NCBI RefSeq assembly: GCF_028641065.1
Contig: NC_073385.1
Coordinates: 41,416,001 to 41,480,000, forward strand
From: Leucoraja erinacea
Lineage: Eukaryota
Direction of reading: 5' to 3'
DNA: 64,000 nucleotides
Below are positions 1,714-62,790 of this stretch, piece after piece. Positions within the stretch are counted from its first letter, which is position 1. Each line of letters begins with the position of its first letter. Both the position numbers and the translations under genes were made by a program. The notes under the pieces were generated by a model that saw only the letters and a list, made by a program, of their open reading frames with translations, made no database searches and was not told where the DNA came from.

Positions 1714-1925
1714 TTAAGAGGGAACTGCAGATGCTGGAGAATCGAAGGTTACACAAAAAAGCTGGAGAAACTCAGCGGGTGCAGCAGCATCTATGGAGCA
1801 GGGGAAGTGTCTCCAGGGGAGCAGGGGAGCGTCTGAAGAAGGGTTTCGGCCCGAAACGTTGCCTATTTCCTTCGCTCCATAGATGCTGCTGCACCCGCTG
1901 AGTTTCTCCAGCTTTTTTGTGTAAC
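1714..1925. mobile_element. Penelope-terminus inverted-repeat insertion with 16-bp TSD
   Basis: TSD CATGATATTTTAGTAT at 1698-1713 and 1926-1941; the insert consists of two PLE terminal segments in opposite orientation. Confidence 0.8.
1833..1863 (+). ncRNA. Putative minimal type I hammerhead ribozyme in a Penelope terminus
   Basis: CTGAAGA-A-GGGT(TTCG)GCCC-GAAAC-GTT: CUGANGA and GAAA core boxes, hairpin stem II, palindromic AACGTT in place of stem III, NUH triplet. Stem I is weak. Confidence 0.6.
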
Positions 1926-2030
1926 CATGATATTTTAGTATCTCGGTTACAGCACCTAGTGGGCATTTGTAGTAGTGCCCTGGAATGGTTCTGTTCTTAT
2001 CTGGCAGACAGAACTATGTGTGTAAGCCTG

Positions 2031-3152
2031 GGGTTACACAGAAAAGCTGGAGAAACTCAGCGGGTGCAGCAGCATCTATGGAGCGAAGGAAATAGGCAAC
2101 GTTTCGGGCCGAAACCCTTCTTCAGACTGATCGGGGGTGGGGGTGGGTGGGGACAAGAAAGGGAAAAGGAGGAGTAGCCAGAAGGCTGGAGGGTGGGAGG
2201 AGACAGCAGGGAAGCTGAGGAAGGGGAGGAGACAGCAAGGACTAACAAAATTGGGAGAATTCGATGTTCATGCCCCTGTGCAGACTCCCCAAACGGAATA
2301 TGAGGTGCTGTTCCTCCTCCGGTGCTGCTCGCTGTGGCCATGGAGGAGACCCAGGACAGAGAGGTCGGACTGAGCCACCGGGAGGTCAGCTTGGTTATTG
2401 TGGACCGAGCGGAGGTGTTCGGCGAAACGATCGCCCAACCTCCGCTTGGTCTCACCGATATAGATCTGCTGGCATCTAGAGCAGCGGACGCAATAGATGA
2501 GGTTGGAAGAGATGCAGGTAAACCTCTGTCGCACCTGGAACGATTGTTGGGACGGAGATGGGGGGGGAGGTAAAGGGACAAGTGTTGCATCTCTTGCGGC
2601 CGCAAGGGAAAGTGCCCGGGGAGGGGGTGGACCGAGAGGGAAGGGAAGAATTGACAAGGGAGTTATGGAGGGAGCGGTCTTTGCGGAAGGCAGATATGGG
2701 GGGAGATGGGAAGATGTGGCGAGTAGTGGGGTCACGTTGGAGGTGGCGAAACTGACGGAGGATTATTTTTTGTATGTGACGGCTGGTGGGGTGAAAGGTG
2801 AGGACTAGGGGGACTCGGCCCTTGTTGCGAGTGCGGGGATGGGCAGAGAGAGCAGTGTTGCGGGGTATGGAAGAGACCCTGGTGCGAGCCTCATTTATGG
2901 TGGAGGAGGGGAACCCCCGTTCCCTGAATAGTGAGGACATTTCAGATGTCCTGGTGTGGAACGCCTCATCCGTGGAGCAGATGCGGCGTAGACGGAGGAA
3001 TTGGGAGTAGGGGATGGAGTCCTTACAGGAAGCAGGGTGGGAAGAAGTGTAGTCCAGATAGCCATGGGAGTCAGTGGGTTTATAGTGTATGTCGGTTAGA
3101 AGTCTATCACCTGCAATGGAGATAGTGAGGTCAAGGAATGGTAGGGAAGTGT
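2031..3152 (-). mobile_element. Penelope-like element (Neptune-type): RT C-terminus, Cys-rich linker, GIY-YIG, HHR-bearing terminus
   Basis: ORFs give MSSLFRERGFP..RVPLVLTFHP..FPCGRKRCNTC and FQVRQRFTCISSNLIYCVRCSRCQQIYIGETKRRLGDRFAEH; HHR-like motif at about 2096-2125 (-). Confidence 0.88.
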
Positions 3153-4038
3153 CTTGATGACATTAAATTCTGGATGGCCCTAAACTTTTTAAATTTTAAT
3201 GAAAAGAAAACAGAAGTGATAGTGTTTGGTCCCAATGGCTCCCGTGAATCTCCCCCTGTTGACTTGGGTCCCTTGGCACTGTATGTGAAGCCAACAGTTT
3301 TAAACCTGGGTTTTAAGATGGACAGTGATTTTACATTAGATCGTCAAATAGGCGCGGTAGTTAAGTCCAGCTTCTTTCATTTAAGGCAGCTGGCAAAGGT
3401 GAAGCCCATTCTTGAATGACAGCATTTTGAAACAGTAATCCATGCCTTCATCACGTCTCGGCTGGATTACTGTAACGCACTTTATTTTGGAGTTAGTCAA
3501 TCTTCCCTTGCACGTCTCCAGTTGGTTCAGAATGCTGCTGCTCGTCTTTTAACTGGCCTCCCTCCACTGGCTGCCTGTGTACTTTAGAGTTCATTTTAAG
3601 ATTATTTTATTTGTTTTTAAATCTTTAAATGGTCTCGCCCCGCCTTACCTCTCAGAGCTGCTTCATCCCTACGCTCCTGCTCGGTGCCTCAGGTCAGCTG
3701 ATCAACTGCTCCTGGAGGTACCGAGGTCTAAGCGGAAGCTCAGAGGGGATAGAGCCTTCTCTGTTGCTGCTCCGACATTATGGAACACTCTACCTTTGCA
3801 CATTAGACAGGCCCCTTCACTGTCCATTTTCAAAACTAGTCTTAAAACCCTTTTCTATTCCTTGGCTTTCGACCCTGCATGAGACTTTGCTCCTGTTTTA
3901 GTGTTTCTATTGTTTTTTTATTGTTTTTACTGTCTTTTAATGTTTTTATTTTGTTTTATGTTTATGATTAGTCATGTACAGCACTTTGTTGCAACAGTGG
4001 TTGTTTTTAAAGTGCTCTATAAATAAAGTTCAGTTCAG

Positions 4039-5654: not shown

Positions 5655-5850
5655 ACAGCATAAACTTCAAGACAGAAAGTGCTGGAGTAACTCGGAGGAT
5701 CAGGCAGCATCTCCGGAGAACATGGATAGGTGATGTTTTGGGTCGAAACCCTTCTTCAGACCGATTGTGGTGGCAAAGGAGGGTACGTGGGGGGAAGAAA
5801 GCTGAAAGAGAGGAGGGGCAGGATAGCAAGTGAAATGTTGGGGGGGGGGT

Positions 5851-15721: not shown

Positions 15722-16463
15722 AGGGGAGAGAGAGAGGGAAAGAGGGGAGGAGAGAGAGAGAGAGAGGGGAGGGGGGGAGAGTGGGAGGGAGCAGAGTCTG
15801 AAACACATGACAGCAGGTTGAAAAAACGAAGACAACGAAAGCTGCCTTGTATAACACTGTACAAGTGAGTAACAGAAGCAGGCATATACAGTGTAGTTAT
15901 ATAGATCTGTTTTGCCTTGTTCTTCGTTGTGTTGTTAACGTGGGATTCTATTCAATTTGGGATTCTATTCAAGGGTATTTTTTTGAGGTGTGGAAGCACT
16001 GGTTCAGCTGCCGAGAATGTTTTTCTCGAGTATCCTATGACCTGAGCATGCGTAGTCGGAATATCAAGCTCGCTTATTAAGAACTTCAGAAACTTTGGCG
16101 GCGCCAAAAATGAGGGAACCTGTGTATTGTCCGGGTGAAGTGAACTATATGCAAAAACAAAGAATTTCACTGTGACTAGGTACATAGAATATCATTGAAC
16201 CGTATAACCTGGAGCTCGGAGTCATTTAACACAGGTGAGTGAAGCTCATTTAAACTTGGCAGCTCAGTTGCTGATCTGCGCTCCAGTGAACGGCAGGACA
16301 CAGGTAGAAGATAGACACAAAAAGCTGGAGTAACTCAGCGGGACGGGCAGCAATTCTGGAGAGAAGAAGTTGGTGAAGTTTCGGGTCAAGACCCTTCTTC
16401 AGACACAGGTAGGTAGACCCGGCCGATAGTCAGGCCGGTGGGGCAGTGGACGGGGACACTCAC

Positions 16464-29635: not shown

Positions 29636-29762
29636 CTAGAAATCCCCAAATCCCGGTGAGATTTGGTTTCGCTCCTCTAGTATCTTTGGTTTTGCTACAT
29701 CTCCTGTTTCCGGAGGAAGTTGCATTTGTAGCCCTATCTTTGGCCCTTACCCTTTGACTTCA

Positions 29763-29852
29763 ATGGCGGCTCGTGTGGTGTTGCAGCAATGTCTTTCGGC
29801 TCGGCTGCAGGTGAAGCCGGCAGAAGAAGGCACAGCGGCTGAATACGTTCAG
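29763..29852 (+). CDS. DTD2: DTD2 (D-aminoacyl-tRNA deacylase 2 / ATD) exon 1
   Basis: MAARVVLQQCLSARLQVKPAEEGTAAEYVQ|gt; upstream ETS-like CCGGAGGAAGT. Confidence 0.9.
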
Positions 29853-30065
29853 GTTCTTGGCGTTGATGGCTGGGATTGCCTTTCCTTACAGCTGGGCGTA
29901 CTGTTGCTCTTGATTTCTCGTGGAGTGGGAAATGAGGCATCGTGTCGGAATATTCTCCCTCCTCTGGGCCGTCGGTTATAACCCGTATTTCATCTTTCAT
30001 TTGAAGTTCATTTGTGAAGGAAGAATTTATATCATATTTTGAATAGTTATTTCCCTATTTTACAG

Positions 30066-30135
30066 ATAGAAAGGGGGACGTTGATCTACGTTTGTTTTTT
30101 TAAAGGTGCAACCGTAGACCTAATCCCCAAAATGT
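30066..30135 (+). CDS. DTD2: DTD2 exon 2
   Basis: tacag|[23 protein letters not shown]|gtgagt; 70 nt. Confidence 0.93.
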
Positions 30136-33085: not shown

Positions 33086-33270
33086 CACAGAGTTTAATTG
33101 GAAATAATAAATAATTTTTCCAAGTAAATTTGGTTAATCCCCCAAAAATTAACCCTTGATCTAATTCAAATTGTTTGCATTAAATATTTTACAGTTAAGC
33201 AGTTTATTTGTATGATGAAATCAAACTGAAAAGTGTTTAGATTTTACCTACAATATTTTCCCTTCTGCAG

Positions 33271-33596: not shown

Positions 33597-35691
33597 ATCT
33601 ATTCTGTCATTTTTTAAATATTATTTAAATGTGGGCACAAGAAACTACAGATGCTGTTTTTTTTTTAGAAAGCACAAAGTGCTGGAGTGATTATTTACAT
33701 ACCTGACCAGTCTGAAGGAGGTCCTGACCCAAAACATTGCCTATCCATGTTCTACAGAAATGCTGCCTGAGCCGCTGAGTTACTCCAACATTTTATGTCA
33801 TTATTTAAATGTGCTTTATTTTATCTCAACAGTTTATTTTCTTTTTAAGAGCAGCTACTGAGAAATTGATTATCCGTAGAATTGTGCACTATCATTCAGG
33901 ATGGAAATGGCATTCTGGTGTGTGGATTTAATACCACCCTGATGAATTTTCCTTTGGCAATTTCTGGAACATGATTGAAATATTTATTTAGAAGTAAGCT
34001 TTGCAAGTAGTATAAGAGTAACTGTAACTGCACACCGCCCAGTCACCTCACACTCATACATAATCTGTTTCCTTTGACAAATGATCATACGTGTGGGAAA
34101 GTTGATGACATTATTTTTTACGGTACTTCAAGTAGGAAATTAAAGTAAGGGTTTTTTTCTGCACTGTTTCAAAGAGATTTCTTTAAAAAAAGATTTTGCT
34201 CTGTTCAAAGACAGTGTTGTGGAAAGATTCAATTGCATGAGTCTATAGTTGGGTAAAATAGTGATATTTCATTGTCACCTTCTGAAAAGAAAGTCCCATT
34301 CACCTAAGGATGCAGTCTATACATGCATTCTGATCAGATCAGCCACTTCTAATGTCACATCCCCTTTGTGATTATAATGTACCTTGGAGATGCCTTGTCA
34401 TTTCTAAGTGGCTTTGGCTTTTGTTATTTGTGTCTCTAGATCGTTTATGTCCTGAAGACCTGTTATTCCTAACCACATTCCATATATTTACCACTTAGTT
34501 CCGCAAACCTGCAGAGATGTTTTGAAAGCAAGCCAGTGTTTCCTTTTATCTTCCCCCATGTACTGTCTTTCAGAGGAGGGGCTGCTCATTTCTATTTATC
34601 TTTGTAGACTATCAGTGTCAATATTTCTTGCTCTGTTACCTTGGCTATTCCATAGCCTACGTAGTCTGCAAATGGCAATTAGCTTTTGACCCATGTATCT
34701 GTCTTTGTTGCTGTACATTTCCCAGTGCTGACACAAATGCCTCATGGCTATGAGCTTTACTACAAACCCTGCATCATCCTGTGAAGTCTTGACTTCAAGA
34801 GAACATTTCAGTGGGCTGATCCTTATTTGTACTGCTGCACTTGTTAGCTTATCTACACTAAGTCTGATGTGCACAGAAATGTACTTCTCATTTATTTTGT
34901 ATTTTTACAGAAGTTGCTGGAGATTGCAAAGATGCAGCAAGTTTCTAGAACTTGCAGCAGCTATGGCGGCAGAAGGCAGGTTATGTTTTAACTGGTCTGC
35001 TCGAAAGGTTAACTGTTTTTTATTCGTGGCAGATGCTGCCTGATCTATTATTTCCAGCTTCTGCAGTTGTCAATTCTTTGCTTATTTGTTTAAATGTTCT
35101 TCCTACAACTGATATTTTAAGTTAATTCATTGCCTGAGATACCTTTTGGAATTGCTGCACAGTTGTACAAACACACATATACACATCTGAAGAAGGGTCC
35201 CGACCTGAAACGTATCCTATCCATGTTGTAGAAGGATCCCAAAACAAAGTGTCACCTGTTGTTGTTCTACAGAGATGCTGCCTGTCCCGCTTTGTGTCAT
35301 TTTTACATGCCTATGCAAGTGTATCTGCGTTTTGAATAATGCTTCTTGATAATGATTTCTTTGAATTGTAAGTTCTTATTAAAGGTTCTGCTGTCTTTTT
35401 TCACTCGTATGAGATTGTTTTGTATGTGGTTTTAAGATACTGGTTACCAGAGTCAGTCAAGTTGAAATCCATTTAGGTTTTGATGTAGAAACAAGGAACT
35501 GTAGATGCTGGTTTACAGAAAAGGACAGAAAGTGCTGGAGTAACTCAGCAGGTCATGCATTATTTCCGGGTCGGGACCCTTTTTCTAACTAGAAGGGCTC
35601 ACATCTGGAGGAGAGTCCCAACCTATTCATGTAAGTTTTGATGTGTCTGTTTTCCTGGTTCAAGATGGGTAAGTGCATGTACAAAATGGTA

Positions 35692-35960
35692 CGAATTCTC
35701 CCAATTTTGTTAGTCCTTGCTGTCTCCTCCCCTTCCTCAGTCCCCCTGCTGTCTCCTCCCATCCCCCAGCCTTCGGGCTCCTCCTCCTTTTTCCTTTCTT
35801 GTCCCCGCCCACCCCCGCCCCTGATCAGTCTGAAGAAGGGTTTCGGCCCGAAACGTTGCCTATTTCCTTCGCTCCATAGATGCTGCTGCACCCGCTGAGT
35901 TTCTCCAGCTTTTTTGTGTAACCTTCGATTCTCCAGCATCTGCAGTTCCTTCTTAAACAC
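35692..35960 (+). mobile_element. Young 5'-truncated Penelope terminus with 14-bp TSD and HHR-like motif (35830-35860)
   Basis: TSD TGTACAAAATGGTA at 35678 and 35961; nearly identical to the terminus at 2031-2262 (-). Confidence 0.85.
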
Positions 35961-38679
35961 TGTACAAAATGGTATTTGGGTTCTTATTTTATACCAGAGG
36001 TTTTTCATATTGACCATGGTTTGTCCACGGGTATACGGAGCTTGCCCAGATTAGGTGTTGGACAACATAGGATTAGGTTTATTACTGTCACTTGTACCAA
36101 AAGTTTTGTTTTGCATGTTATCCAAATATATACCATACAGATACATTGTGTAAAGAAGACTGATGCATATTTGCGGCTACCTTTGCAAAATTAGGTCACA
36201 CGGACATCTGAAGAAGGGTCTCAACCCGAATCGTCGCCAATTCCTTCTCTCCATAGATGCTGCCTCACCCGTTGAGCTTCTCCAGCATTTTGTGTCTACC
36301 TTCGATTTTACCAGCATCTGCAGTTCTTTCTAAATGTTGGTTTCTGTAAGTGCTTGGCATCCAAATCAATAGAAACCAACCTGCAGAGAGACAAGTTCTC
36401 TAATGTTTATTGACCTCATTATGGAGTTTTATTTGGTATTACGTAGAGAAATAACATGGAAACAGACTCTTCCGTCCACCAAGTCCATGCCAACCAACGG
36501 CCACAAATTCATGCAAGTTTTGTTATCCCACTCTCTCAAGTCCATACATGCAAGGGACCATTTACAGTGGCCAACTTGCCTACAAACTCACTCCTCTTTG
36601 GGTTGTGGGAGAGGAAATCCACATAATGATAGGGAGAACATACACATTTCATAGAGACACACCTGAGGGCAGGATGGAACGGAGGTCTCTGCCTCTATGA
36701 GGAAGCCGCTCTACCAGTTGTGCCACTGTGCTGCCCTGAGTTATGAGAAACAGCAATTTGCCAAGTGAACTGCTTAATTGCTTCTATCACATTGTCTTCT
36801 ATTTGACTGTTCTCACATGAAGTACAGAGCCAGCAAGTTACCCCTGGAAATGCAATTGGAACCCAAAGCTCATGGCTAGTAAGAGATGAGGTTGTTAGAC
36901 CGATTTAGCTTTAGACCCATGCAAAGTATGCTGCATGAAGTTTCTGCTGGGTATGATTCCATTATTTTAGTCCCTTATCTTGAAAAAACTGCTGAATTGG
37001 TGTCTTGAGACTGCAGCCACTGATTCGGGGATATTGATTGTTTCTTTGTAAGAAAACCATATACCGGTAGTTATTTATGTTCTCTTACTAATATTTGAGT
37101 ATTTATAATCGTTCCAAAGAAAGGTGACACTTGACATTCCAGCAGATGGGTTGAGATGTGGGAATAGGATTGAAAATAATAAACTAGAATCACTTTTATG
37201 AATATTTATTTGGTGATTCTTAGTTTGCAATTACACTTTATTCAATTTCTAAACTATTAACATAAAGTCACTGCATTAAAAATTAACAGTGACATTATGA
37301 ATTCAAATCAATGAGATTAATCCAAAATGCTTTGCTGGTCTATGTGAATGGAAAAATTAATAAATTGAAAACCAACAATTATAAAGATAAATAGAATTGA
37401 TGTTCACGATTTCAATATGTGTATCAGTTTCATGTCGGTGCAATGAAAACAATTATTGCCATATTTAATGTTTTGGGTAATGGAAGAAATGTGTAAAGCC
37501 AACATTTGAAATAAAAATTATACTTGAAATGTTTCTTTTGTGTGCAATTTGTTTTTATATGCTGGACAAGTGATTTTTGTTTTAAATCCTCATGAATTTT
37601 GAGATTATTCGATTGATATGTTCTGTTTATAGTGGGATGCACAAAGGTATCCGAATAAATGTGCAGATCACTCTTCTCTGCACCCATATCATGATTTATG
37701 AACTGCTTGTACTTTATGGGTCCTTTGTCTGATTTCCACCCCTCACCCATTCCCTGAATTTGGTGAATACAGATGTATGCATCATCTCAACTGTGGGCAT
37801 ATTAAATATTTAATAATGTCAGTTTGAACCAGCAGGGACATTTTTTGAAGGGTACTTAACAATATTTATCACACAATTATTACTGTGATTGTTACTATAT
37901 TATTTTATGGAATCTTATGCACTGCACAAATTGACTGCCATCTTTAACAGTAATCGGAGGTATGGGGTCATTAGTGTTATTAGTTCTAACACCACTTGAG
38001 GTCCTATGTTTGTGAATGGCATTCTATAAATACAAGTATTTTTACTCGTGGACTTTAAGAATCAATTCCAGCTATTTGGTTGCTCAGTCGGCGGAGTGTC
38101 CTCATCTAGGGAAGGAATAGATCAATTGAGTCTCCAGCTTCTATGTGCAGTCTGGTGACATGAGAGAAAGTAAACATGTCTGGGAACACCTTAAATCTCT
38201 GTCCTCTGGTTCTTGATTTTCCCCACTCTGGGTAAAATACTGTGCATTCACCCTATCTATTCCCATTCATGCTCTTATACACCTCTACATGATAAACCCC
38301 TCATCCTTCTGCACTCCAAGGAATAAAATCCCAGTCTGCCCAACCTCTCACTATAGCTCAACCTCTCAAGTCCTGGCAACATCCTCGCTAATCTCTGCAC
38401 TCTTTGCAGCTTCACGACATCTTTCCTAAGCTAGGAACTACATAAAATTGCGGGGCATTTTTTGGTTTTGTCTTTTGCACTATTTTTTGTTTTGTGTGTG
38501 TGTGTGTGTGATATATATATATATATATATATATTGTGTATGGATGTGTGTATATATACACACATATATATATATATAATATGCACTATAACACACATAT
38601 ATATAGATACATATACACACACACATATATATATATATAATTCAGTAGGCATCAGGACTGGGAGTGTAGCGATTCATTT

Positions 38680-40492: not shown

Positions 40493-43394
40493 AACATTCC
40501 GCGTACTGTACTTGATTAAAAGAAAAATAGCTTGTGGACATAGAGTTCAATGTTGTCTCCGGGTGTGGTAGTTTAAGCTGGTGATTACATCAACAAGCGG
40601 TTGAATGGAAACAAAAGGATTAAAACAAGGTGGTGGTATTTTCAGGGCTACAATTTTTGTTGTACTTTTATGTTAACATATATAGCGATTCACAATAAAG
40701 AACACAGCACAAGTGTGAATTAAAACGTGCTTTGTCATAAAACAATATTGGAGCCGGCCTTTGTGAATATATTACTGCTAGTAAAAAAACTGTGTATCTC
40801 GGTAATATTTACTATTGGACAGACTGTTGCAGGCAGATTTAACAACTGATTAATTGCTTAGTTTAATTTCTTTAAAGGAAGGCAATGGTGCCTTCTCCCA
40901 ATATTAATATGGTAGTTTAGCAAAAAATAGCCAAAACTTCAATACAAGTATGTCCCTTAAGAGAAGGCATGAACCATAAAACGGTCCAATCCGTGTAAAC
41001 AGCCTTAAAAATAATTCCATTAGAATTTATTTTTAACTGCTTTACTCTGTATTTTTCTTTTTTTTCAGAAAATACAATATTTACATTAGTTGAGATGAAA
41101 GCAATATCATTGCTCTTATTTTTTTTTATCCCAAGTTAAATGACAATTCCTCTTCCAGTTAGCATTTATTATGTTTATTTTTGAATTTAAAAAAAATTTG
41201 CAGCAAACTGAACCACAGCCTCCAGTACACTGTTTTGAGATTTTTCTAAGATATCTCACAAATAATTAGTTGACTGTGTGTTGGGTTCTTGTTTTCTGAA
41301 TGCTTTACATACTGTAATTGCATTATGTCATTTATGTACTGGTTCTACAGTTTTAGGCAGGACTTTTAAAATAAAACTTAGGAATTTTAAAGCAATATTA
41401 GAAAACATTGCAAGAAATAAATAAGCTTATGTGAGGTTTGTCATTAGTTTATGCCGAGAAGGTAGATTTTTGTGCATTATTTTTCCTAAGATTCGTTCAG
41501 TAAGATCATATCTGACTCCTCTCACACTGGCCACAAACTCTTTGAATCACTTCCCTCTGGAAGGCAACTCCGGACTGTCACAGCTGCCACAGACAGACAT
41601 AAAAAGCTTTTTTCCACGAGTAGTAGCTCTACTCAATAACCAAAAATCTGTAGCCTCCTTTTGCCCTGGTATTTTATTTAATTCACATGTTTAATCGATA
41701 ATGTTTTATTATTAATGTTTAATGTGTCATTCTTAATTGTCACAGTATATCACAATTGTCACTTGCGAGTGGAGCACCAAGGCAAATTCCTTGTATGTGA
41801 ACATACTTGGCCAATAAACTTATTCATTAATTCATAGAAAGTGCATTGATAAAGAAAGGCTAGATTATTCTATAAGGTTGATGGGCAGCTGGTTTTGTAC
41901 TGGCAACTGATTCTATAATCTATATTTGATTTATTTACATTTGTGTGCGGCATTAATTGTTCACATTGTTGGTCAACTGCAAATATTCTTTTTAAGTCCG
42001 GTGAATTTGCAAACATTCTTATATTATTCTTTTCACCGGATGTCAGTAATGTATTTGTGGAATAAAACACACAGTACTGAAATAACTCCGTGGGTTAGAC
42101 AGCATCTGTGGAGGGCATGGATAGGTGAAGTTTTTGGTTGGAACCCTTCAGCTTTGAGTCAGAAGAAAAGTCCCAACCTGAAACATTGCCTATCCTTTCC
42201 CTCCACAGATGCTGCCTTGCCAGAGGTACTCCAGTACTTTGTGTTTTACTCAAGATTCCAGCATCTGCAGTTTCTCGTGTATGTGTGGAAGCTGTTTGTG
42301 GCAGAAATCTAATTTTGAAGAGACCTGTTCAGTTTCTCCATTACCAAGACAGTTGGCTAATCCTGGACACTGACAGTTTCTGATACCACTTAGTACATCT
42401 CAGTTTATCATAAATAATTTATAATTCCAGTTACTTAGTGCTGGAGCTGCGAAATTTAAAGCTGTAAATGAGCCATTTAAAAAATAAAAAAGTATGACTT
42501 GTAATTTAGAGGAGAGCTGTTGGAAAGCGTAATTGACAGTTCAATGAAATTCTGTTATTAATCAAGCCACTTAATTATTTCATCCACTGCTTACTGTCCA
42601 GTCTTTATCTGAAAGATCTCCAATCCAATCGATTCAGGATGAGGAAGGGTACCAACCCGAAACATTGCCTATCCATTATATCCCGAGATACTGCCTGAGT
42701 TACTCCAGCATTTTGTGTATTTAAAAGATCTCCGATGTTCAGTTGAAAATGGACCCAAAGTGCTGGAGTAACTCAGCAGGCCAGGCAGCATCCCTGGAGA
42801 GAAGGAATGGGTGACGTTTCAGGTCGAGACCCTTCAGACATTTGTTTGGTCCAATGTTCAGTTGAATGATTTTCTATAAAAAATATCAAATGCACGGCGG
42901 CATAATGTTTTAGTTTACTGTTTCTTCGTAGTTTGTTTGATTGTATATTGCCAGTGAATCCTGTGATTATTGGCGTTGATTATTGACTGACGTGTACAGT
43001 TAAGGAATATTTTTGTGAGTCCAGTCAGAAAGACTGATTAGTCTAGGGAAGGTGTTCTTTTCATGTGTGAAACAAAAACGCTGATTTCCATTCTATTCCA
43101 GTTGTCCTTGATACCATTGAAATGAGCACCTTTACATGTATACATCAACATGACAGCTGAAGTCGTTTTCGGTTAAAGTCCTATTTTTATGGAATTTATT
43201 AAGCAATATTTCTGTACTCTATGCAACCTTAATTGAGAAACAAAAGAACATTACATAGCAGTATCTTCAAGCATTTTTCAGCAGATTTTCATCAGTGATA
43301 TAAATGAAAATTACTTCAAAATCTTACTGGGAATAATAAAGCATGCCTTTTTAGTTCTTCGAGCAGAGTCAATTTTCCCATTTGTGGAACAACT

Positions 43395-44110: not shown

Positions 44111-44920
44111 AAATCAGAAAGACTGGATCATTCTGAAGTTATGGGAGCAAATTAGGGCTAGAATGAATTTTTCAGGCAGTTGTGTCAAAATAAATGAACT
44201 GTCCATTATGTTGTAGAAGATCATTTGCAGTATTTCTTGCTCTGCATCTTCATTTTGAAGGGACACTGTTGAGTGAATAATATGCAGATATGCAAAAATT
44301 GGAGGAGCAGCACCTCATATTTCGCTTGGGCAGTTCACACGCCAGTTCTCCTTCCTTCCCTTCCCAGCTATCCCACAGCCTACTGTCTCCACCTCTTCCT
44401 TTCTTCTTCCCGTCCCCCCCACCCCCACATCAGTCTGAAGAAGGGTCTTGACCTGAAAAGTCACCTATTCCTTCGCTCCGTAGATGCTGCCTCACCTGCT
44501 GATTTTCTCCAGCATTTTTGAGGGGGGGGGGGGGGGGGGGGTAGAGGTAGAGGTGGAGTGGAGTGGAGTAGGCGGGCGGGTGTGGGAGTCCAGGCTGTGG
44601 GAGGCGTGGTGCGAGCGTACTTGGCTGGGCGCGGGGCTTTAATCCACAGCGGCTGGGAGGCGCCGCCTGGAGGCAGGTGTGCCTGGATTGGTCGGCATGT
44701 GGGCATTGTGATGTCAGCAGCTTCTGAGTGCCGTTTAGATTTTAAAAATTGATTTTTGTCATCAATGTTATTCAAAATCTGGGGAAATAATTGACCAAGG
44801 AGTGGATTTCTGAACTTATAAGTAAAATCCCTTCCGAAATGGTAAATATCTCTGCATTTTTGCGTCTGGTTTTCAAGGAGATGCGTTTCACATGCAAAAC
44901 CACACACGCACACGCACACG

Positions 44921-48282: not shown

Positions 48283-48524
48283 AAGGTACACAAAAAAGCT
48301 GGAGAAACTCAGCGGGTGCAGCAGCATCTATGGAGCGAAGGAAATAGGCAACGTTTCAGGCCGAAACCCTTCTTCAGACTGAAGACAGACTTCCATCTGA
48401 AGAAGGGTTTCGGCCCGAAACGTTGCCTATTTCCTTCGCTCCATAGATGCTGCTGCACCCGCTGAGTTTCTCCAGCTTTTTTGTGTACCTTCGATTCTCC
48501 AGCATCTGCAGTTCCTTCTTAAAC
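48283..48524. mobile_element. Penelope-terminus hairpin insertion with 16-bp TSD
   Basis: Inverted arms about 48283-48377 and 48396-48491; TSD ACTATGAAGAGAACTT at 48267 and 48525. Confidence 0.85.
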
Positions 48525-49313
48525 ACTATGAAGAGAACTTGTTGACCAACTTTTTAATCCTCAAATATCGTAATTGTTGCCCATTGTTTATGTTGTATAA
48601 TATTTTTCCATGACTGCAATCTTAGATCTGTGCTAATATTTCCATGTGCAACAGCTTGTGGGTCAAACACAAACTGCATATATTATTTTTTTTAATATCA
48701 TTTTGATCTTCCTAAGAACATTTCTTGCAGCTTAATTGTTCAAAAGTACATTTACTCCAATCTTTTGGCTCATTTGGACGTACAGAAACCTTTCCAAGGA
48801 GAAAATTAATTAATAAATATAAATGTACAGCAATATTTTAAACATGGGCAATGACTTTTCAGATGGGGATCAAAGAAAACAATCAATAATTTAATCTAAG
48901 ATTGTATTGTAATCCACAAAGCAATTGAATTTGAGACTCAAATGAACAAAGAACCCCTGAGCTGAAATGGTTGCATTAACAATTATGCTTTGTGCCCTTA
49001 AATATAACTAGTTAATCATATAATGCAGTGAATTTCAGTGCAGCACTGGAAGTAGATTAAGAGGACGCACAGGATGCCTGATTTCATTAGTTACAGGGCA
49101 TAAGAGCAAAGAGGTTGTGATTCAATCATACAAAACTTTATTTAGGCCACTGTTAGGGAGCTGTATTCAGTTTTCCTCGCTGCACAACAGGAAGGATGTG
49201 GTTGTACAGGAAAGAGCACAAAGAAGATTCACCGGGTTGTTGCTAAGGTGGAATGTTTCAATTTTGTGTGAGACTGGATAGGCTAGGTTTGTTTTCATTC
49301 GATATGGGAAGGT

Positions 49314-50250: not shown

Positions 50251-50377
50251 ATGGAGCAAGCACATGGCCTGCTATTAAATGAAGAGTTCTACAGTAAACT
50301 GAGTGACGCCAAGAAACCAGCATTCTTTTTTTGAATGGCTGCAATTCTTGCAAAAACTTTTGGTGGCTGCGAGTAAG
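50251..50377 (+). CDS. HEATR5A: HEATR5A first coding exon (apparent +1 T frameshift at 50326-50332)
   Basis: MEQAHGLLLNEEFYSKLSDAKKPAF..[T7]..EWLQFLQKLLVAASK|gtaaag; acceptor gcag at 50161-50164. Confidence 0.88.
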
Positions 50378-51099
50378 GTAAAGCATGAACTGTTCTTAAA
50401 GTTGTGAAAATGTCTTTGCTTTTGTAATTTTCCAAAGATACAGGTCATGCCAATAGACATGCTAACCTTTGATGCCAATCCAGCTAATCTCACTAGCCCA
50501 CATTATGCCTGGATCCCTCCAATCCTTACTGAAATACCTGTCAAAGTGCCTTTTGAACATTATAATGCTCTCTGATTCCATTACCTTCTCTGATATCTTG
50601 TTTCAAATATTCAGCACTCTCTTAAAATGTACTCCTTTTAAATTTCTCCTCCATCACAAATTTGTGCTGAGTTCCAGACTAATTTGCCATGAGAAAAGGA
50701 CACTGTCTATCTCCTCTAACTGTACCCCTCATAATTTTGTAAACTACAAAGTCATCCCTTGTCCTATGTCCTTACAGCCTTTCTTAAATAAAGGTACAAT
50801 GTTAGCCATCCTCAAGTCTTCCGCTACCTCACCTGTGGCTAATAGAAACAATGATGGTTAACAAGAAAGATTAAATAGACTGGAATTATTCTCACTGGAA
50901 CATAGGACAAGGGATGACTTTGTAGTTTACAAAATTATGAGGGGTACAGTTAGAGGAGATAGACAGTGTCTTTTTCTCATGGCAAATTAGTCTAGAGAGA
51001 AATTAACCACATGTGATGTTTTTCTATTACAAATCTCAAATTGTGGAGTACAGAGGCAAATAAATAAATGATGGGTCATTGTCCCAAACATTATGGTGT

Positions 51100-52410
51100 G
51101 CACTGTAGACGGTGATGTGGAGATATAAAAAACAATGAATGAAAGATATGCAAAAAAGTAACAATGATAAAGGAAACAGGCCGTTGTTAGCTGTTTGTAA
51201 GGTGAAAATGAGAATCTAGTGCGACTTGGGTGGGGGAGGGATAGAGAGAGGGAATTGCGGGGCTACCCGAAGTGAGTGAAATCAATATTCATACTACTGG
51301 GCTGTAAGTTCCCCAAGCGAAAAATGAGATGCTGTTCCTTCAATTTGCATTTAACCTCACTCTGACAATGGAGGAGACCGAGAACAGAAAGGTCTGCGTA
51401 GGAACGGGAAGAGGAATTAAAGTGTCCAGCAACCGGAAGATCACGTAGGTTCAGGCAGGCTGAACGAAGGTGTTTCGCGAAACGATCACCCAGTCTGCTT
51501 TTGGTCTGCTTGTATAAGAGTCCGCATGTTGAACAACGAATACAGTAGCTGAGGTTGGAGGAGGTGCAAGTGAACCTCTGCCTAACCTGAAGGGACTGTT
51601 GGGGTCCCTGGACCCTCGAGGGAGGAGGTATAGTGACAGGTGTTGCATCTTCAGCGGTTGCAGGGGAAGGTACCTGGGGAGGGAGTGGTTTGGGTGGGAA
51701 GAGATGAGTTACCAGGGAGTTGTGGAGAGAAAGGTCTCTGCAGAAGGTGGAAAGTGGGGAAGATGGGAAAATGTGGCTAGTGGGGAATCCCGTTGGAGGA
51801 TTATGTGTTGTATGCAACGTCTGATGAGGTGGGAGGGTATGGACTAGGGAGACTCTGTCTCTGTTGCGACTAGGGGGATGGGGAGCAAGGGTGGAGCTGC
51901 GGGGTACCGAGGAGACATGAGTGATGGGAGAGGGGGACCCCCGTTCCCTAAAGACTGAGGACATTTCAGATGTTCTAGTATTGAACACCTGATGACGGAG
52001 GAACGGAGTAGGGCATAGAGTCTTTGCAGGAAGCAGGGTGGGAAGAAGTGTAGTCAAAATAGTTATGGGAGTCACTGGGTTTCTAATAGACGTCAGTCAA
52101 TAGTCTATTTCCTGTGATGGAGACTATGAGATCAAGAAAGGGGAAGGAGGTGTTGGAGATGGTCCAAGTAAATTTGAGTGCAGGATGAAAATTGGTGGTG
52201 AGGTTGATGAAGTCCATGAGTTCTGAATGGATGCAGGAGGTAGCATGGATGTAGTCATCAATGTAATGGAGATAAAGTTTGGGGATAGGGTCAGTGTACA
52301 CTTGGAACAGGGATTGTTCAACATACCTTACAATGAGGCAGGCATAGCTGGGGCCCATGCGGATGCACATAGCTACGCCTTGGAGGAAGTGGGAGGAGTC
52401 AAGTGGGTGC
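51100..52410 (-). mobile_element. Penelope-like element (RT and GIY-YIG), degenerate
   Basis: GVAM..MGPSYACL..YIDD..LKFTWTIS..FLDL; FTCTSSNLSYCIRCSTC..RLGDRFAKH..EQHLIFRLG..NIDF. Confidence 0.88.
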
Positions 52411-53029
52411 TGGTTTGACTGCACAGGTTAGCATTTCTTCATCATCCCAGATGGAATCTTCAGGCACTTGGGAGCAATTAAGTCTTAACTACATTGTTGT
52501 GGGTCTGGAAAGTTAAAGGCAGAGTGGTTTAGGTCAGAATGTTTCCTTCCAACCCAGATGGGTTTTTATGCCAATCCACGGTTGACACGATGAGGACTCC
52601 AGTTAAAGTCTCTACTAACTGAATTCAAACTTCCTCGTGCCAGGTTTCAAGATCATCTTGTAAACTCCTGGATTACTAAATAACGTGCTGTAAGGCAGCA
52701 ACTCTACCGTTGTGCCATTGTGCGGCATACTCCCCCTGAATTCTCAATTCTGATGCAGGGTTTTGACCAGAAACATCAAACATTCCTTTGCATTCACAAT
52801 GCTACTCAACCCACCGAGTTCCTCCAGCAAATTGTTTGTTGCTCCAGACTCCAGCATCTACGGTCTCTTTTCTCTTCCTCCCTCATTGACTGGTCATTGC
52901 TATTTGTAAATTCCTTTGCACATATAGAATCACAGCTTGGTTTGATTGCATAACAATGCAGCATTCAAAAAAATAAAATTGATGTAATGCACAAAAGATT
53001 GAGAGTACACGAAGGAGCAAGACAAATAA

Positions 53030-53293
<264 letters not shown>

Positions 53294-54008
53294 TAAGCGA
53301 TCTTATTTATTTATTATTTGTAGAAAAATATGAGGATTGTGGTAATTCCCCCATTGTGACTAACTTTAGAGCAACAGACGTTAAACAACAACATTAATGA
53401 TTGTAGACACAAAGTGCTGGAGTAACTCAGCAGGACAGGCTGCATCTCTTTCGGGTCGTCACCCATTCCTTCTCTCCAGAGATGCTGCATGTCACACTGA
53501 GTTACTCCAGCATTTTGCGTCTACCTTCGATTTAAACCAGCATCTGCAGTTCTTTCTTAAACATTAATGATTGGATGTGCAAAGCCATTTAAGTGAGGTG
53601 ATGATTTAGTTAAGGGGTAAAATGCACTGTAATATTGTCACAGGATTCTGAATCTGAAACTGGTTTCTCTAAATTCTCCCCTAATATTTGACATCCCTAT
53701 GCCGATGTTATAATGTATACACCATAGATGGAATCCAATGGAAGAAGATGGTTTGCTTAGAAATTCTCTCTGATATCAAAATGTGCTTCAGTGATGGTTG
53801 GAATTCTTGGTTAAAACGAAACTCTACTTTGAGGTTGCAAAGAAGATGTGGGTGACTTTATGTGTATTTGTGCGTTCATGGTAGTTAGTTGATTTTGGGT
53901 AGGAATGTGAATTGGCACACAATCTACTTTGATAAACACACTTGAGTTTCCTTTCTCAGAAGGTATTTTACCGATTCATATTATCCAAGTAATTTTGCTA
54001 TTTTGTAG

Positions 54009-54293
<285 letters not shown>

Positions 54294-54534
54294 TAACAAA
54301 TGTTTGCATTTGGGATTTATTTATTTATTTTTGATAAATGGCATTCCTTTCTTTATGAAACCTTACGAGTATCCAAAGGTTTTATAAGTATGTTAAGGGG
54401 AAAGGGATAACAGGAAAGAAACCAAAGTGGTCATATGTGTGGAGCCGTGGGAGATTGGCAAGATCATCAGTGAATATTTCTTCTCTGTTTTTACCGCAGA
54501 GAATGATCTGAGGACTAGAGAACTTGTGAAAGTT

Positions 54535-55620
54535 AATAATAATAATAATAATAAATACTTTATTGATCCCCTCGGGGAAATTCAGATGTCCAGAAGCCCC
54601 CAACCAACAAACCCACTGATTCAAAACGAACGCAGACAGAAAATACATAGAATACACTGTGGACACTACCTGAGAGCAATAAATACTTAAAAAGACCAAT
54701 AATTAACAATTAAAAATTAAAAATTGCAAAAATGCATCCCCCCACAGCCTAGCGGTCCGAATTATAAAATCTAATGGGTGCAGGGGTGAAGGATCTCCTG
54801 AACTGCTCCGTTCTACAGTGCAGGGAGAGGAGCCGGTTGTTGTTCCGAGTGCTCTTTTGATTCTCCAGAATTACATGGAGGGGATGCCCGGGGTTTTTCA
54901 GGATGACCTGCACCTTGTGCCTCATACGCCTCTCAAGCACATCCATCCCAGAGTCCACTCTCCCCTCCAGCACTGAGCTAGCTCGTTTAACCAGTTTGAC
55001 CAGCTTCTTGTTGTTTTTTTCACTAATGCTGTTGCCCCAGCAGACAACAGCGTAGAAAATAACACTTGCAACCACAGTGTTGTAAAACATGTGCAGCATA
55101 TCACTACACACATTGAAGGATTTGAGCCTTCTGAAGAAAAGGAGTCTGCTCTGGCCTTTTTTGTAGAGGGAGTCAGAGTTGACAGACTGAAGGGGGAGCT
55201 TGGACCTGCCAAAGTTAACCACCATCTCTTTAGTCTTAGTTGTGTTCAGGATGAGACAGTTCTCTTCACAACAGCTGCACAAAAGGAACTGGTCAAGTTC
55301 CTGTATTCCTCCTCCTGCCCGTTCCTTACACATGCCACAATCGCTGTATCATCTGAATATTTCTGTACGTGGCATGTGTCAGACATAGTTAAAGTCTGCT
55401 GTATACAGGGTGAAGAGGAACGGGGCCAGAACCGTTCCCTGTGGGGCACCAACATTGCACACCACTGTGCCAGAGACACTGTTCCCCAGCTTGACAAACT
55501 GTGGTCGACCCGTCAGGTAGTCGTATATCCAGGAGATAAATGGAGATGTTTTGAGTACAGTCCGTATTATGGTCAAGGAGGTACTGGATGTTCCAAGGCC
55601 GTGGGGATTGTGGTGGACAG
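54535..55620 (-). mobile_element. Rex1/Babar-type LINE RT fragment, inserted in a CR1 remnant
   Basis: WIYDYLTGRPQFV..GAPQGTVLAPFLFTLYT; KYSDDTAIV; LNTTKTKEMVVNF; tail (TAT)n. Confidence 0.82.
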
Positions 55621-56493
55621 GGGAATCCAGGAGTACATGTGTGGTTCCCTGAAAATAGTGTTGCAGGTAGATGCGATAATGAAGAAGGCTTTTAGCCTGC
55701 TGGCAGTCAGAGAACTGAGTATAGACGTTGGGACATTATGTTACAGTTGTGCCAGATGTTGGTGAGGCCACGTGAAGTACTGTGTTCAGTTTTAGTCACC
55801 CTGCCATAGGAAAGATGCCATTAAACTGGAAGAAGGGACCCAACCCGAAATGTGACCCATCCTTTTTATTCAGAGATGCTGCCTGACCAGCTGAGTTACT
55901 CCAGCACTTTGTGTATCTTAAGAATACAGAGAGGATTTACAAGGATGTTGCCAAGGCTTGAGTGTCTTTATTCATTGGAGCACAAGAGGCTGAGGGATGA
56001 ACTTACTGAGGTGTATAAAATCATGAGTGGAAGAGATAGGGTGAATGCACAGAGTATTTTACCCAGAATAGGGGAATCAAGAACTAGAGGGCATAGGTTT
56101 AAGGGAAAGATTTAATACGAACCCAAGGGGCAACTTTTTAACATGGAGAGTGGTGGGTTTTGGAATGAGCTGCCAGGAGAAGAAGATGAAGCCGGTATAA
56201 TAACAACATTTAAAAAACATTATGACTGGTGCATAGATAGGAAAGATTTAGAGGGATTTTGGGCCAAAGATGGGTAAATGGGTCTAACTTAAATGGGAGA
56301 TCTTGCTCGGCATTGACGAGTTGGAATGAATAGCCTGTTTCCGTGCTTTATGACTATGTATAATTATTAATTTCTAATGTTGATTATTGTGCTAAAAGTT
56401 CCAAGAGAGTGCTCAGTCTTCATGCAAGCTGAGAAGCCTACTGTTTGGTTAAATTTGACTATCTAATCTTAAACATCTTTCTCCGCCATCTAG

Positions 56494-56661
<168 letters not shown>

Positions 56662-56852
56662 TAACATTTATTCACTTTCAGCCACATTTGAATGAGGAAA
56701 AAGACTGCAGGGTTTGTTAAAACAGAAAAATAATTGGTACCTAGACTTTCTGACAATGTATTTTTAAAAGGTTGGTTGTTTATTTCTAGATTTGATTTCA
56801 ACACAAAAAATATTGAGGAAGTGTTTCTGAGCTGTGGAAAGCGTTGGGAAAT

Positions 56853-57141
56853 GTTTAGTTTAGAGATCCAGTGGGGAAACAGGCCTTCGGCCCACCGAGT
56901 CCACGCCGACCTGCGATCACCAGTACACCAGTTCCATCCTACACATTGGGGACAATTTACAGAAGCCAATTAACCTATAAACTTGCACGTCTTTGAGAAA
57001 ACCGGAGAACCCGGAAAAAACCAACGTGGTCACAGGGAGAATAGACAAGCTCTGTATGGACAGCACCCGTGGTCAGGATCGAACCTGGGTCTCTGGCGCT
57101 GTAAGGCAGCAACTCTACCTCTGCGCCACTGTGCTGCCCCA
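56853..57141 (-). mobile_element. tRNA-derived SINE (HE1/V-SINE-like)
   Basis: Reverse strand GGGCAGCACAGTGGCGCAG..GGTTCGATCCTGAC (A/B boxes)..GGGCCGAAGGCCTGTTTCC..CTAAAC tail. Confidence 0.78.
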
Positions 57142-57833
57142 TTATATGAGAAAAACCTGCACTTGACAAAAGATCTAAAGCAGATTTTGTAAGGTTGAAA
57201 AAATGGAAATATGAATAATTGTATGAAAATTAGATTTGATATGATAACACAATCGGATACATATGAAAATATTGTACAGAGTTAATCTGAGAAATTGTTG
57301 TCTATAGGGATAAGAATAAGGGAAGACAGTTTAATGTTTAACTGGCAGTGATGTAGAGATATCAGTTTTGAAGCAATATAATCAACCTTGAAAAACTGTG
57401 TTTGAAATTTTTTTTTTTGCATTTCGTGTTCGATGGTATGGATGGACAAATTAAAAGGCATTGCAAAGATCTGGAAGCAAGAGCATTTTAGTGCGCGTTT
57501 CTCCTGTTTGCCTGTGCGTCTTTTGTGCTTTTCACTATGCGGTCTCCTTATTGGTTTATTCCCCACATGTACCTTTTTACTTGAAGTGCTGTTTTTTCTC
57601 TCAGTGCTGCATTTTAATGATCATGTGTGACATTTGCTTCATTAAAAAAATAAATCTTGAACAGCAGTCCAAAAGATTACGTTTCAGAATGCCAAATACC
57701 TAATTTGCAGCTATTAACCTTAGTTCTTGACCAAAAATATTTGTCGACAGGATTAGTGTGTTAATTCCAGATGTGTTCTTTTTTTCCAATGTTCCAATTA
57801 ACTTTTTACCATGATTGCTCCAGCAGATACTGA

Positions 57834-58073
<240 letters not shown>

Positions 58074-60868: not shown

Positions 60869-61032
60869 NNNNNNNNNNNNNNNNNNNNNNNNNNNNNNNN
60901 NNNNNNNNNNNNNNNNNNNNNNNNNNNNNNNNNNNNNNNNNNNNNNNNNNNNNNNNNNNNNNNNNNNNNNNNNNNNNNNNNNNNNNNNNNNNNNNNNNNN
61001 NNNNNNNNNNNNNNNNNNNNNNNNNNNNNNNN
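60869..61032. other. Assembly gap (164 N)
   Basis: Run of N. Confidence 1.
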
Positions 61033-61616
61033 AAGTTCTATTGTTTAGTATCGTGTGTGTAGGAAGGAACAGCAGATGCTGGTTTAAACTGAAGATAGAC
61101 ACAAAAAGCTGGAGTAACTCAGCAGGTCAGACAGAATCTCTGGATAAAAGGAAAATATTACGTTTTGGGTTAGGTCTGAAATAGGTTCCTGCACATCTTT
61201 GGAATGTGGAAGGAAACAAGAGCACCCAGAGAAAACCCATGCGATCAAAGGGAAAAGGAGCAAACGCCATAGAGACAGCACCCATATTCAGGATCAATTC
61301 CGGGTCTCTGGCACTTTTAGGCAGCAACTTTATGGCCAATTTACTGCCCCATAGTCTTGAACTTAATTAAAACATACAGTAGCTGTATAGGGAGATATAG
61401 CATCACTTGGAGATTTAAGACTGAAAATTGATATTTTCATATTTTTAGTAACCAAAGTTATGAACGTATAATTTTTATTCTCCCTGCAAGTGTGTGGGTT
61501 TCCTCCCACATCCCGAAGGCGCATTGGCTTTGTAGGTTAACTTGTCTCCTTAAAATTGCCCCAAATGTGTAGGGAGTGGGTGAGGAAAGTGGGATAACAA
61601 AACTTGTGTGAATGGG

Positions 61617-62790
61617 TAGACAAAAATGCTGGAGAAACTCAGCGGGTGAGGCAGCATCAATGGAGCGAAGGAAATAGGTGACGTTTCAGGTCGAGACCCT
61701 TCTTCAGACTGATGTGCGGGTGGGGGGGACGGGAAGAAAAAAAGGAAGAGGCGGAGACAGTGGGCTGAGGGAGAGCTGGGAAGGGGAGGAGAAAGCAGGG
61801 ACTACCTGAAATTGGAGAAGTCAATGTTCATACCGTTGGGGTGTAAACAACCCAAGCGAAATATGAGGTGCTCCTCCTCCAATTTACGGTGGGCCTCACT
61901 CTGGCCATGGAAGAGGCACAGGACAGAAAGGTCGGATTCAGAATGGGAGGGGGAGTTGAAGTGCTGAGCCACCGGGAGATCAGGTTGGTTATTGCGAACC
62001 GCGCGGAGGTGTTGGGCGAAGCGATCGCCAAGCCTACGCTTAGTCTCACCAATGTAGAGCAACTGACACCTAGAGCAGCGGATGCAATAGATGAGGTTGG
62101 AGGAGGTGCAGGCGAACCTCTGTCGCACCTGGAAAGACTGCTTGGGTCCTTGAATGGAGTCAAGGGGGGAGGTAAAGCGACAAGTGTAGTATTCCCTGCA
62201 GTTGCAAGGGAAAGTGCCAGGAGAGGGGGTGGTTTGGGTGGGAAGGGGCGAATCGACCAGGGAGTTACGGAGGGAACGGTCTCTGTGGATAGCCAACAGG
62301 GGAGGAGATGGGAAGATGTGGCCAGTGGTGGGATCCCATTGGTAGACAAAAAAGCTGGAGAAAATCAGCGGGTAAGGCAACATCTCTGGAGCGAAGGAAT
62401 AGGCGATGTTTCGGGTCGAGACCCTTCTTCAGATTGATGCCGGGCGGGATGGGGGAAGACACAAAAAAGAAAGGAAGAGGCGGAGACAGTAGGCTGTGGG
62501 AGAGCTTGGAATGAGAGGAGAAGGAGGGAGAAAGCAAGGACTACCTGAAATTAGAGAAGCCAATGTTCATACCCCTGGGGTGTAAACTACCCAAGCAAAA
62601 TATGAGGTGCTGCTCCTCCAAAATGAGGTGGGGCTCATTCTGGCCATGGAAGAGGACCGGGACAAAGGTCAAATTCGGAATGGGAGGGGGAGTTGAAGTG
62701 TTGAGCCACCAGGAGATCAGGTTGGTTATTGCGAGCTGAGTGGAGGTGTTGTGCGAAGCGATCGCCAAGCCTGGGCTTGGTCTCACTGAG
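61617..62790 (-). mobile_element. Tandem head-to-tail Penelope 3' units (GIY-YIG plus HHR terminus, twice)
   Basis: Two copies of the GIY-YIG C-terminus (..HLIFxLGxLHPxGMNIxFSNFR*), each followed by CTGAAGAAGGGTCTCGACC(C/T)GAAAC at 62432 and 61707. Confidence 0.88.

Follow-up and report, generated by a model that had tools for sequence, protein, structure and literature searches.

The stretch analysed here, referred to as the window, comprises 64,000 nucleotides of Leucoraja erinacea contig NC_073385.1 (positions 41,416,001 to 41,480,000) and contains four genes, within and beside which lie numerous short repeats carrying a minimal hammerhead ribozyme motif. These repeats are very probably end pieces of Penelope-like elements (PLEs), each made up of a pseudo-long-terminal repeat (pseudo-LTR) and a tail, which likely derive from the Neptune clade and likely persist in the host genes as inert relics. 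The genes are as follows.

16541-16458, 8539-8387, 7885-7847, 7207-7112, 5448-5413 and 5273-5193, minus strand: coding exons of NUBPL, a gene that extends past the left window edge.
17096-22468, plus strand: Myb/SANT-like DNA-binding gene (PF13837, E 4e-19).
29735..35450, plus strand: DTD2, with the first exon read by eye, the last coding exon reaching 33596 (Pfam Tyr_Deacylase) and RNA coverage to about 35.4 kb.
50251-50377, 53078-53293, 54141-54260, 56494-56643 and 57852-58028, plus strand: coding exons of HEATR5A (span 50251..58028).

The NUBPL exon is 94% identical to that of the skate Rhinoraja, and the Myb/SANT-like gene, left unnamed in a preliminary description of this DNA, stands head-to-head with NUBPL over a common CpG island. 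The interval 39.6-50.2 kb was treated as the putative first intron of HEATR5A, whose first coding exon aligns in two frames at 50327-50331, with a break in a T run that reflects either an assembly slip or a real frameshift. The repeats had been assigned to introns of NUBPL, DTD2 and HEATR5A, which is partly wrong: by the gene spans used here 8 of the 48 copies fall outside genes, 6 lie in the Myb/SANT-like gene, and 3 occupy the 3' untranslated region (UTR) of DTD2, together with a short arm at 33636-33656.

Copies were searched for with a profile made from 18 window copies, which gave 49 matches at E<=0.5, compared with 0-1 in each of five shuffled versions of the window. At the cut-off of E<=0.05, 48 copies remained, all of which were analysed. 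The repeat unit consists of the motif followed by roughly 60-100 nt of conserved downstream sequence. At least 20 of the 30 motif columns are covered in 34 copies, 12 of which keep all core letters, and 6 of the 48 are complete, possessing core, stem II, palindrome and a 2-bp helix I (1833+, 2125-, 30780-, 35830+, 48377- and 61707-, named by the position of C3 and the strand); the G10.1-C11.1 pair is kept in 4 of these 6. Seven young copies differ from one another by 0-2 nt over 93. The earlier count of over 20 intact or decayed copies is thereby borne out, the majority being decayed, and all 14 copies that had been listed are present, with C3 at the position given or 1 nt away (5759-, 44435+, 48377-). 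In this one window the density amounts to one copy per 1.3 kb and one intact core per 5.3 kb. Beyond the window, 159,984 and 93,664 DNA contigs align to 3.2 kb, which signifies great abundance without yielding a copy number. The step in DNA depth from 1.3 million over the upstream UTR to 11 million over motif and tail was rejected as a ratio, being inflated because the UTRs differ among subfamilies at the 90% cut-off.

The motif combines the core CUGANGA, GAAA and UH and matches the published consensus of the minimal type I hammerhead of PLEs, as had been proposed. Cervera & de la Pena (2014) characterised the version found in PLE repeats by one additional nucleotide following position 9, by closure with a G-C pair and by a palindrome at 15.2-16.2 (PMC4209133), and minimal hammerheads in the pseudo-LTRs of metazoan PLEs were also treated by Lunse et al. 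(RNA Biol 14:1499, as cited in PMC6765202). Here, the extra A after the CUGAAGA box is invariant in all 26 aligned copies. Across 25 rows, the closing pair G10.1-C11.1 is G-C in 15, G-U in 6, A-U in 2 and unpaired in 2, with stem II 93% paired overall; the palindrome, which stands without a stem III, retains C-G in 13 of the 25, the remainder largely showing CpG decay. Helix I consists of 2 bp, below the usual 3-5, and is 74% paired; in the young subfamily it is a G-C plus a U-G pair, and a longer helix I was sought in the long copies, none being adjacent to the cut site. The extra A and the roughly 2-bp stem I, which had been entered as caveats, are both known traits of PLE minimal hammerheads, since the alignment and trait list of PMC4209133 contain them; a 2-bp helix I is drawn for Culex, D. 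virilis and Oikopleura (supplementary Fig. S3).

Further likenesses to the motifs described in PMC4209133 are the G-C-closed stem II, the GAAA-C-G-U-H palindrome without stem III, the position after the PLE ORF (open reading frame), and the prevalence of solo truncated copies, some of them in opposite-strand pairs. In contrast, helix I here lies at the short extreme, stem II has 4 bp, and the species of Table S1 and Fig. S3, as far as examined, include no cartilaginous fish. The single-window density given above may be set against the 4,000-9,000 motifs per genome termed remarkable in that paper. In the literature consulted, skates are not mentioned as carrying these motifs; a report may exist in subscription papers, in Repbase or in the supplements of a 2026 preprint (10.64898/2026.07.22.740005), which name its chondrichthyan species. 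The ribozyme aspect is ordinary, motif, host element and dispersal having been described in 2014, and the value of the window is that it offers a clean, very young, high-copy vertebrate example of a likely Neptune-type element; a genome-wide count of insertion anatomy could test PLE priming and ribozyme cutting in vivo.

The identity of the parent element emerges from the five clearly long copies (2125-, 35830+, 44435+, 61707- and 62432-), in which the sequence upstream of the motif continues as a pyrimidine-rich UTR (82-88% pyrimidine) and then as the end of an ORF. Pfam reports a GIY-YIG domain at 61805-62428 (E 2.7e-5, above cutoff) and another at 2271-2762 (E 0.0017, below cutoff), and in tblastn searches the protein relatives align collinearly right up to the UTR preceding the motif. 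Among 148 longer relatives, the best of which come from sharks, rays and skates, many possess reverse transcriptase (RT) domains and some GIY-YIG. An RT followed by a C-terminal GIY-YIG persists as broken but collinear remnants at 3231-2248 and 52415-51269, and the translation of 2476-3162 contains a Cys linker, CX4CX2C, between the two. Linkers of the form CX2-5CxxC are common to Neptune and Nematis and absent in Penelope/Poseidon (PMC8557442), and the vertebrate PLE clades reported are Neptune and Poseidon (preprint 10.64898/2026.07.22.740005); the element is therefore likely a member of the Neptune clade, with which it shares the order of RT, linker and C-terminal GIY-YIG (PMC8557442, PMC3846280), even if Nematis has the same linker. 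Poseidon, the first guess, was dropped because of the Cys linker.

With GIY-YIG and RT remnants directly upstream of the long copies, the proposal that most of the short repeats resembling short interspersed nuclear elements (SINEs) are ribozyme-bearing PLE ends holds. Alternatively, they could form an independent SINE or retrozyme family with its own replication cycle, as their uniform size of 100-140 nt and their high density might suggest. Non-LTR retrozymes are likewise short hammerhead repeats related to PLE ends and in some vertebrates are present in very many copies, as many as 120,000 in axolotl (PMC7229834; 10.64898/2026.07.22.740005), and tandem retrozymes have been reported from one chondrichthyan (10.64898/2026.07.22.740005). 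Retrozymes, however, are arranged in tandem, mostly carry canonical type I ribozymes and produce circular RNA, whereas the skate repeats are dispersed, solo or inverted, and carry the minimal motif. No head-to-tail tandem array of the hammerhead unit occurs among the 49 tandem-repeat rows of the window, the sole real tandem (61707/62432) includes ORF sequence, identical sequence runs on from the repeats into PLE ORF ends, and the ends of the repeats coincide with the PLE tail points described below. An Rfam search of the whole window gave no match of any family at the gathering threshold, so that the repeats are without a tRNA or other Rfam head and their 5' end is the hammerhead itself. An independent family thus appears very unlikely.

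The insertions from which the anatomy of the copies can be read are listed below.

1713..1926, both strands: head-to-head insertion with a minus arm at 1712-1806 (long tail, no core) and a plus arm at 1831-1926 (complete, C3 1833, short tail); 16-bp target duplication at 1698 and 1926.
2032..3231, minus strand: 5'-truncated young-subfamily PLE (RT thumb, CX4CX2C, GIY-YIG, pyrimidine-rich UTR, complete hammerhead with C3 2125, short tail), lying sense in a NUBPL intron.
5667..5764, minus strand: older-subfamily copy (C3 5759) with G12 lost and pyrimidine-rich sequence upstream.
16311..16406, minus strand: short copy (C3 16402), core intact, palindrome broken; an 11-bp duplication abuts C3.
30650..30880, both strands: head-to-head insertion in a DTD2 intron, in which 30780- is complete and long-tailed and 30787+ is short-tailed with an intact core and a 1-bp helix I; the target is duplicated over 15 bp at 30640 and 30880; a hairpin of about -197 kcal/mol is predicted.
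33634..33800, both strands: head-to-head insertion in the DTD2 3' UTR, with a short minus arm (long tail only) and a decayed plus copy (C3 33712); 14-bp duplication at 33620/33800.
35185..35291, plus strand: two partial copies within the 3' UTR of DTD2, one of which, 35187+, keeps its core but lacks helix I.
35692..35960, plus strand: young PLE end with ORF tip, UTR, complete motif (C3 35830, predicted cut 35857/35858) and long tail; 14-bp target duplication at 35678 and 35961.
36206..36336, plus strand: short decayed copy (C3 36208), core broken, long tail.
42065..42282, both strands: decayed head-to-head pair with a short and a long tail; no target duplication recovered.
44296..44521, plus strand: PLE end (C3 44435) that keeps its core but has a broken palindrome; it has UTR upstream and is accompanied by a short ORF piece in inverted orientation.
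48285..48525, both strands: head-to-head insertion in which 48377- is complete with a G-U closing pair and ends in a short tail, and 48397+ is long-tailed with an intact core and a 1-bp helix I; the target is duplicated over 16 bp at 48267 and 48525.
51259..52415, minus strand: PLE body from RT to endonuclease region, with no detectable hammerhead end.
53402..53562, both strands: head-to-head insertion without cores, with a short and a long tail; 14-bp duplication at 53390/53560.
61614..62912, minus strand: partial tandem of two PLE ends 725 nt apart, antisense to HEATR5A, each with an upstream GIY-YIG-region remnant; 62432- has a broken palindrome and a 1-bp helix I, 61707- is complete with a G-U closing pair.

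The 3' ends of the copies fall at two fixed tail points about 40 nt apart, the longer tail being present in 15 of the 48. Ten head-to-head pairs were recognised (including 33656/33712), of which six combine a long with a short tail, three have two short tails and one has two long ones; all five pairs with a recovered target duplication are of the long/short kind, an asymmetry that has already been described. A separate 6-of-6 test of this asymmetry is given no weight, since its pairs were selected. Target duplications of 14-16 bp were found by script at 5 of 22 boundary pairs; to these come one of 11 bp at 16402 and one of 14 bp at 33620/33800, the latter read directly. The insertion at 35692..35960 is absent in a related organism, in which one contig joins 35677 to 35961. 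The filler between the arms at 1807-1830 contains an 11-nt repeat of the adjacent arm, as if from template switching during joining, and the filler at 48383-48395 contains a small fold-back. Both young insertions at 1713-1926 and 2032-3231 interrupt a long interspersed nuclear element (LINE) on the plus strand of the NUBPL intron (168-3882), which shows long open frames and Pfam matches to AP endonuclease and RT.

Tail extension, inverted 5' copies, partial tandems and target duplications are all found in these copies, and PLEs have been described as having inverted copies, target duplications and a tail confined to one end (PMC8557442, PMC3846280). Neptune PLEs in particular share with them the 5' truncation, the partial tandem, the inverted 5' copy and a 30-40 bp tail at one end along with target duplications, which measure 14-16 bp here and 8-10 bp in the Adineta cases of the same papers. 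Unlike those elements, many insertions here consist of just two tiny inverted end pieces, and their 5' ends cluster at the ribozyme edge. In the mechanism that we propose, the endonuclease of the element would nick the target, RT would start inside the RNA at one of the two tail sites, and priming on both target strands would produce the head-to-head mini-insertions; selection acting on the active element would retain the ribozyme, which there would cut solely in dimeric form, probably helped by the element protein, and would decay once inserted.

An experimental parallel is the Anolis Poseidon element PAc. Frangieh et al. (2024) found that its ribozyme cuts only when the element protein is added, that uncut RNA is the main template, and that no RNA-seq ends occur at the cut site (PMC11167929). 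As in PAc, two RT start sites appear to bound the tail, both target strands would be nicked and extended, and the hammerhead lies upstream of the RT start in what would be an uncut template RNA. PAc belongs to another clade, and its ORF starts inside the ribozyme, whereas in the young copies a frame opened at the first ATG downstream runs into a stop within 14 codons, and the window contains no ORF start.

The 5' ends of the short copies provide a lead. They were tallied for 39 copies, leaving out eight with upstream UTR (five clear, three judged by pyrimidine content) and the divergent copy 52750. Fourteen of the 39 start 1-5 nt before C3 (p=5e-8 if starts were spread uniformly over 80 positions), another three start 10-13 nt before it, and none starts within 2 nt of the cut site (p=0.08 alone); the alignment starts of decayed copies are uncertain. 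With starts at the core edge and none at the cut site, the safest inference is that the copies were made from RNA uncut at the hammerhead. That the short copies arose by run-off at the 5' end of an uncut RNA starting about 3 nt before the core comes close to an even bet.

Genome-wide, the upstream loose ends with the best support near the motif, among the positions listed, lie at 35828 in DNA contigs (182 contigs, mixed flanks) and at 35827 in oligo-dT RNA (809 reads); for the other two runs they lie at 35824, where pyrimidine-rich flanks mark long copies of other subfamilies. At this site the initiator pattern YYANWYY is matched by 6 of the 7 copies that are long or probably long, and 5 have C-rich boxes upstream. 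An extra G before AGT, as a cap would leave, was considered, since it appears in 3 of the 4 copies whose match stops at -3; these are too few, the match at 18690 may extend further, and the idea gains no support.

A live and quite possible rival is that the hot spot marks a 3' splice site, with its pyrimidine tract and a CAG right before the core, or a bias from microhomology or RT stalling, rather than a transcription start. In D. virilis, Penelope has an internal initiator/DPE promoter in the pseudo-LTR and starts about 120 nt before the ribozyme (PMC2377424), and its intron ends at helix I (PMC4209133, PMC2377424), which is why splicing or junction bias has to be taken seriously. The pyrimidine-rich tract of the long copies fits a splice acceptor, at 16402 the final matching letters are part of the target duplication, the starts range from -1 to -5 with three reaching -10 to -13, and host exons spliced to the AG there could account for the loose ends in RNA at 35827. 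Conversely, the short copies have no common upstream exon, their 5' ends abut target duplications or the partner arm, and the corresponding loose-end peak recurs in DNA contigs with mixed flanks.

A fuller model built on the run-off reading would place the hammerhead at the very 5' end of the element RNA, beginning at an initiator-like TCAGT 3 nt before the core; cutting would take away the cap, a protein-gated off-switch that an alternative helix would keep closed before the protein binds, and the copies of 100-140 nt would be cDNAs run off from the cap-proximal tail with priming on both target strands. As a whole this model is rather improbable. Were it true, the genome would amount to a very large fossil record of RT start sites, of the site where the RNA starts and of the cleavage state in vivo, addressing the open question of PLE hammerhead function. 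The literature consulted does not mention such clustering of 5' ends at the ribozyme edge; a report may exist in subscription papers, in Repbase or in the 2026 preprint supplements.

How far the ribozyme itself has been maintained was examined by pairing, folding and conservation. Across 25 distinct rows, 84.5% of cells pair, and the claim that stem II pairing is preserved across subfamilies needs correcting: two-sided change affects 3 of 8 pairs (5 cells), with a covariation score equalled by 29 of 500 shuffles, and the stem II differences between subfamilies are one-sided wobbles (U-A to U-G, G-C to G-U), so that there is no real compensatory covariation. The Rfam comparison that had been suggested left the motif undetected, the hammerhead families giving no match in 61500-62600 even at E<=10 in addition to the empty whole-window result at the gathering threshold. 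In RNAfold, the hammerhead fold lies 2-15 kcal/mol above the minimum-energy fold in 15 of 15 constructs with a helix I probability of at most 0.014, and in most of the 8 copies folded GAAGG is predicted to pair with the downstream pyrimidine run, forming an alternative helix.

Over 18 copies picked for motif coverage, variants shared by subfamilies affect 0 of 10 non-CpG core columns, 0 of 7 in stem II, 8 of 17 in the spacer and 7 of 35 in the tail, and a core without subfamily-shared change agrees with selection acting on the active element. Rare changes, taken to stand for post-insertion decay, number 11 of 173 in the core and 61 of 626 in the tail (p=0.23), so the excess of core conservation over flanks that had been looked for is not significant by this measure. 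A scan with the motif pattern found no locus in viral contigs and two in metagenome contigs (L001:548-575 and L002:10-37), which belong to other lineages and retain the layout of core, stem II pairing and palindrome with different loops. L001 has the identical five letters before the core and a helix I of 3 bp; in L002 a PLE ORF start follows about 250 nt downstream of the motif, which therefore sits in the 5' leader of the next unit.

These results bear on the view that the motif is a dead vestige, kept by descent or through overlap with promoter or protein-binding elements, which never cuts even in the active element. The helix I of just 2 bp, the lack of compensatory covariation, the predicted alternative helix and the absence of starts at the cut site all accord with it, and Craig et al. 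consider hammerheads to be possibly mere parasites of PLEs (PMC8557442). Against it stand the core and stem II free of subfamily-shared change, unlike the flanks, the two metagenome loci that keep the layout, and the Anolis motif that cuts with protein (PMC11167929). A dead vestige is accordingly judged unlikely, albeit not negligible, and retention by selection on the active element is preferred.

A separate matter is whether intact copies in sense orientation, acting as dimers in cis or in trans, cut host pre-mRNA and thereby affect splicing or RNA levels, as the preliminary description had thought possible. The six complete copies and the near-identity of the seven young ones leave room for such activity, the young palindrome forms a predicted intermolecular duplex (-5.7 kcal/mol), and the family is abundant in RNA (24,119 and 20,617 aligned reads), so that partners in trans could be common. 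The observations in the window lend the idea no support. Within genes, 23 copies lie sense and 17 antisense (p=0.43). Of the six complete copies, four are antisense, another is situated beyond the apparent DTD2 end, and just one, 2125- in NUBPL, is both sense and intronic. The single sense intronic copy is predicted to be locked in a 96-bp pairing with the 1833 copy (-219 kcal/mol), and predicted long hairpins of -128 to -219 kcal/mol bury the paired copies generally. No pile-up of RNA begins or ends is listed at 35857/35858 in two raw RNA runs labelled with the same species (about 600-3,000-fold depth per direction), a weak test for the reasons given below. Published activity is low or protein-dependent, the monomer being inactive and the dimer weakly active (PMC4209133, PMC11167929). 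Pre-mRNA cutting is consequently very unlikely; if it did occur, so many cutters in introns would exert a major influence on gene expression in the skate.

Several considerations nevertheless weigh against the reading of the copies as inert, likely Neptune-derived PLE ends. RNAfold models neither dimers nor tertiary contacts. The RNA-end test is weak because the libraries are ill-suited and the threshold coarse: fragmented libraries were used at 1-5% of each run, the reads stem mostly from decayed copies in both orientations, and pile-ups are listed only from a fifth of the local depth. With all mismatches taken together the core is lower than the tail (6.4% versus 14.9%, p=0.003), a difference that is ascribed to subfamily divergence, and the rare-change test is low-powered, with a trend in the direction earlier expected. 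Further sense partners may exist because NUBPL and HEATR5A extend beyond the window, and the depletion of tandem retrozymes from Xenopus introns (preprint 10.64898/2026.07.22.740005) indicates that active hammerhead repeats can be selected against. Finally, the window is without a full-length element, and the clade assignment follows from a single linker motif.

Additional observations concern the tail and the surroundings of the repeats. A go-back joint in RNA from 33787 to 33740 is supported by 460 reads in run X24 and 64 in run X22 and is absent among the DNA contig joints listed. It suggests an expressed tandem of an approximately 66-nt tail unit without the core, which begins 1 nt beyond the base that directly follows the hammerhead cut site; its source may be a genomic minisatellite or, less likely, a small circle. 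A minus-strand frame at 11452-11916 includes a short stretch that we take to resemble the first exon of TFIIS/TCEA, with no Pfam match, and the CpG-rich frames at 45177-46507 resemble a broken DNA-transposon transposase, with no Pfam match for 45177-45803. Further young mobile families are represented by a 300-nt repeat pair, 97% alike, at 12834-13133 and 43562-43861, and by a 97-nt inverted repeat at 50673-50996, whose arms are 98% identical and separated by 130 nt.

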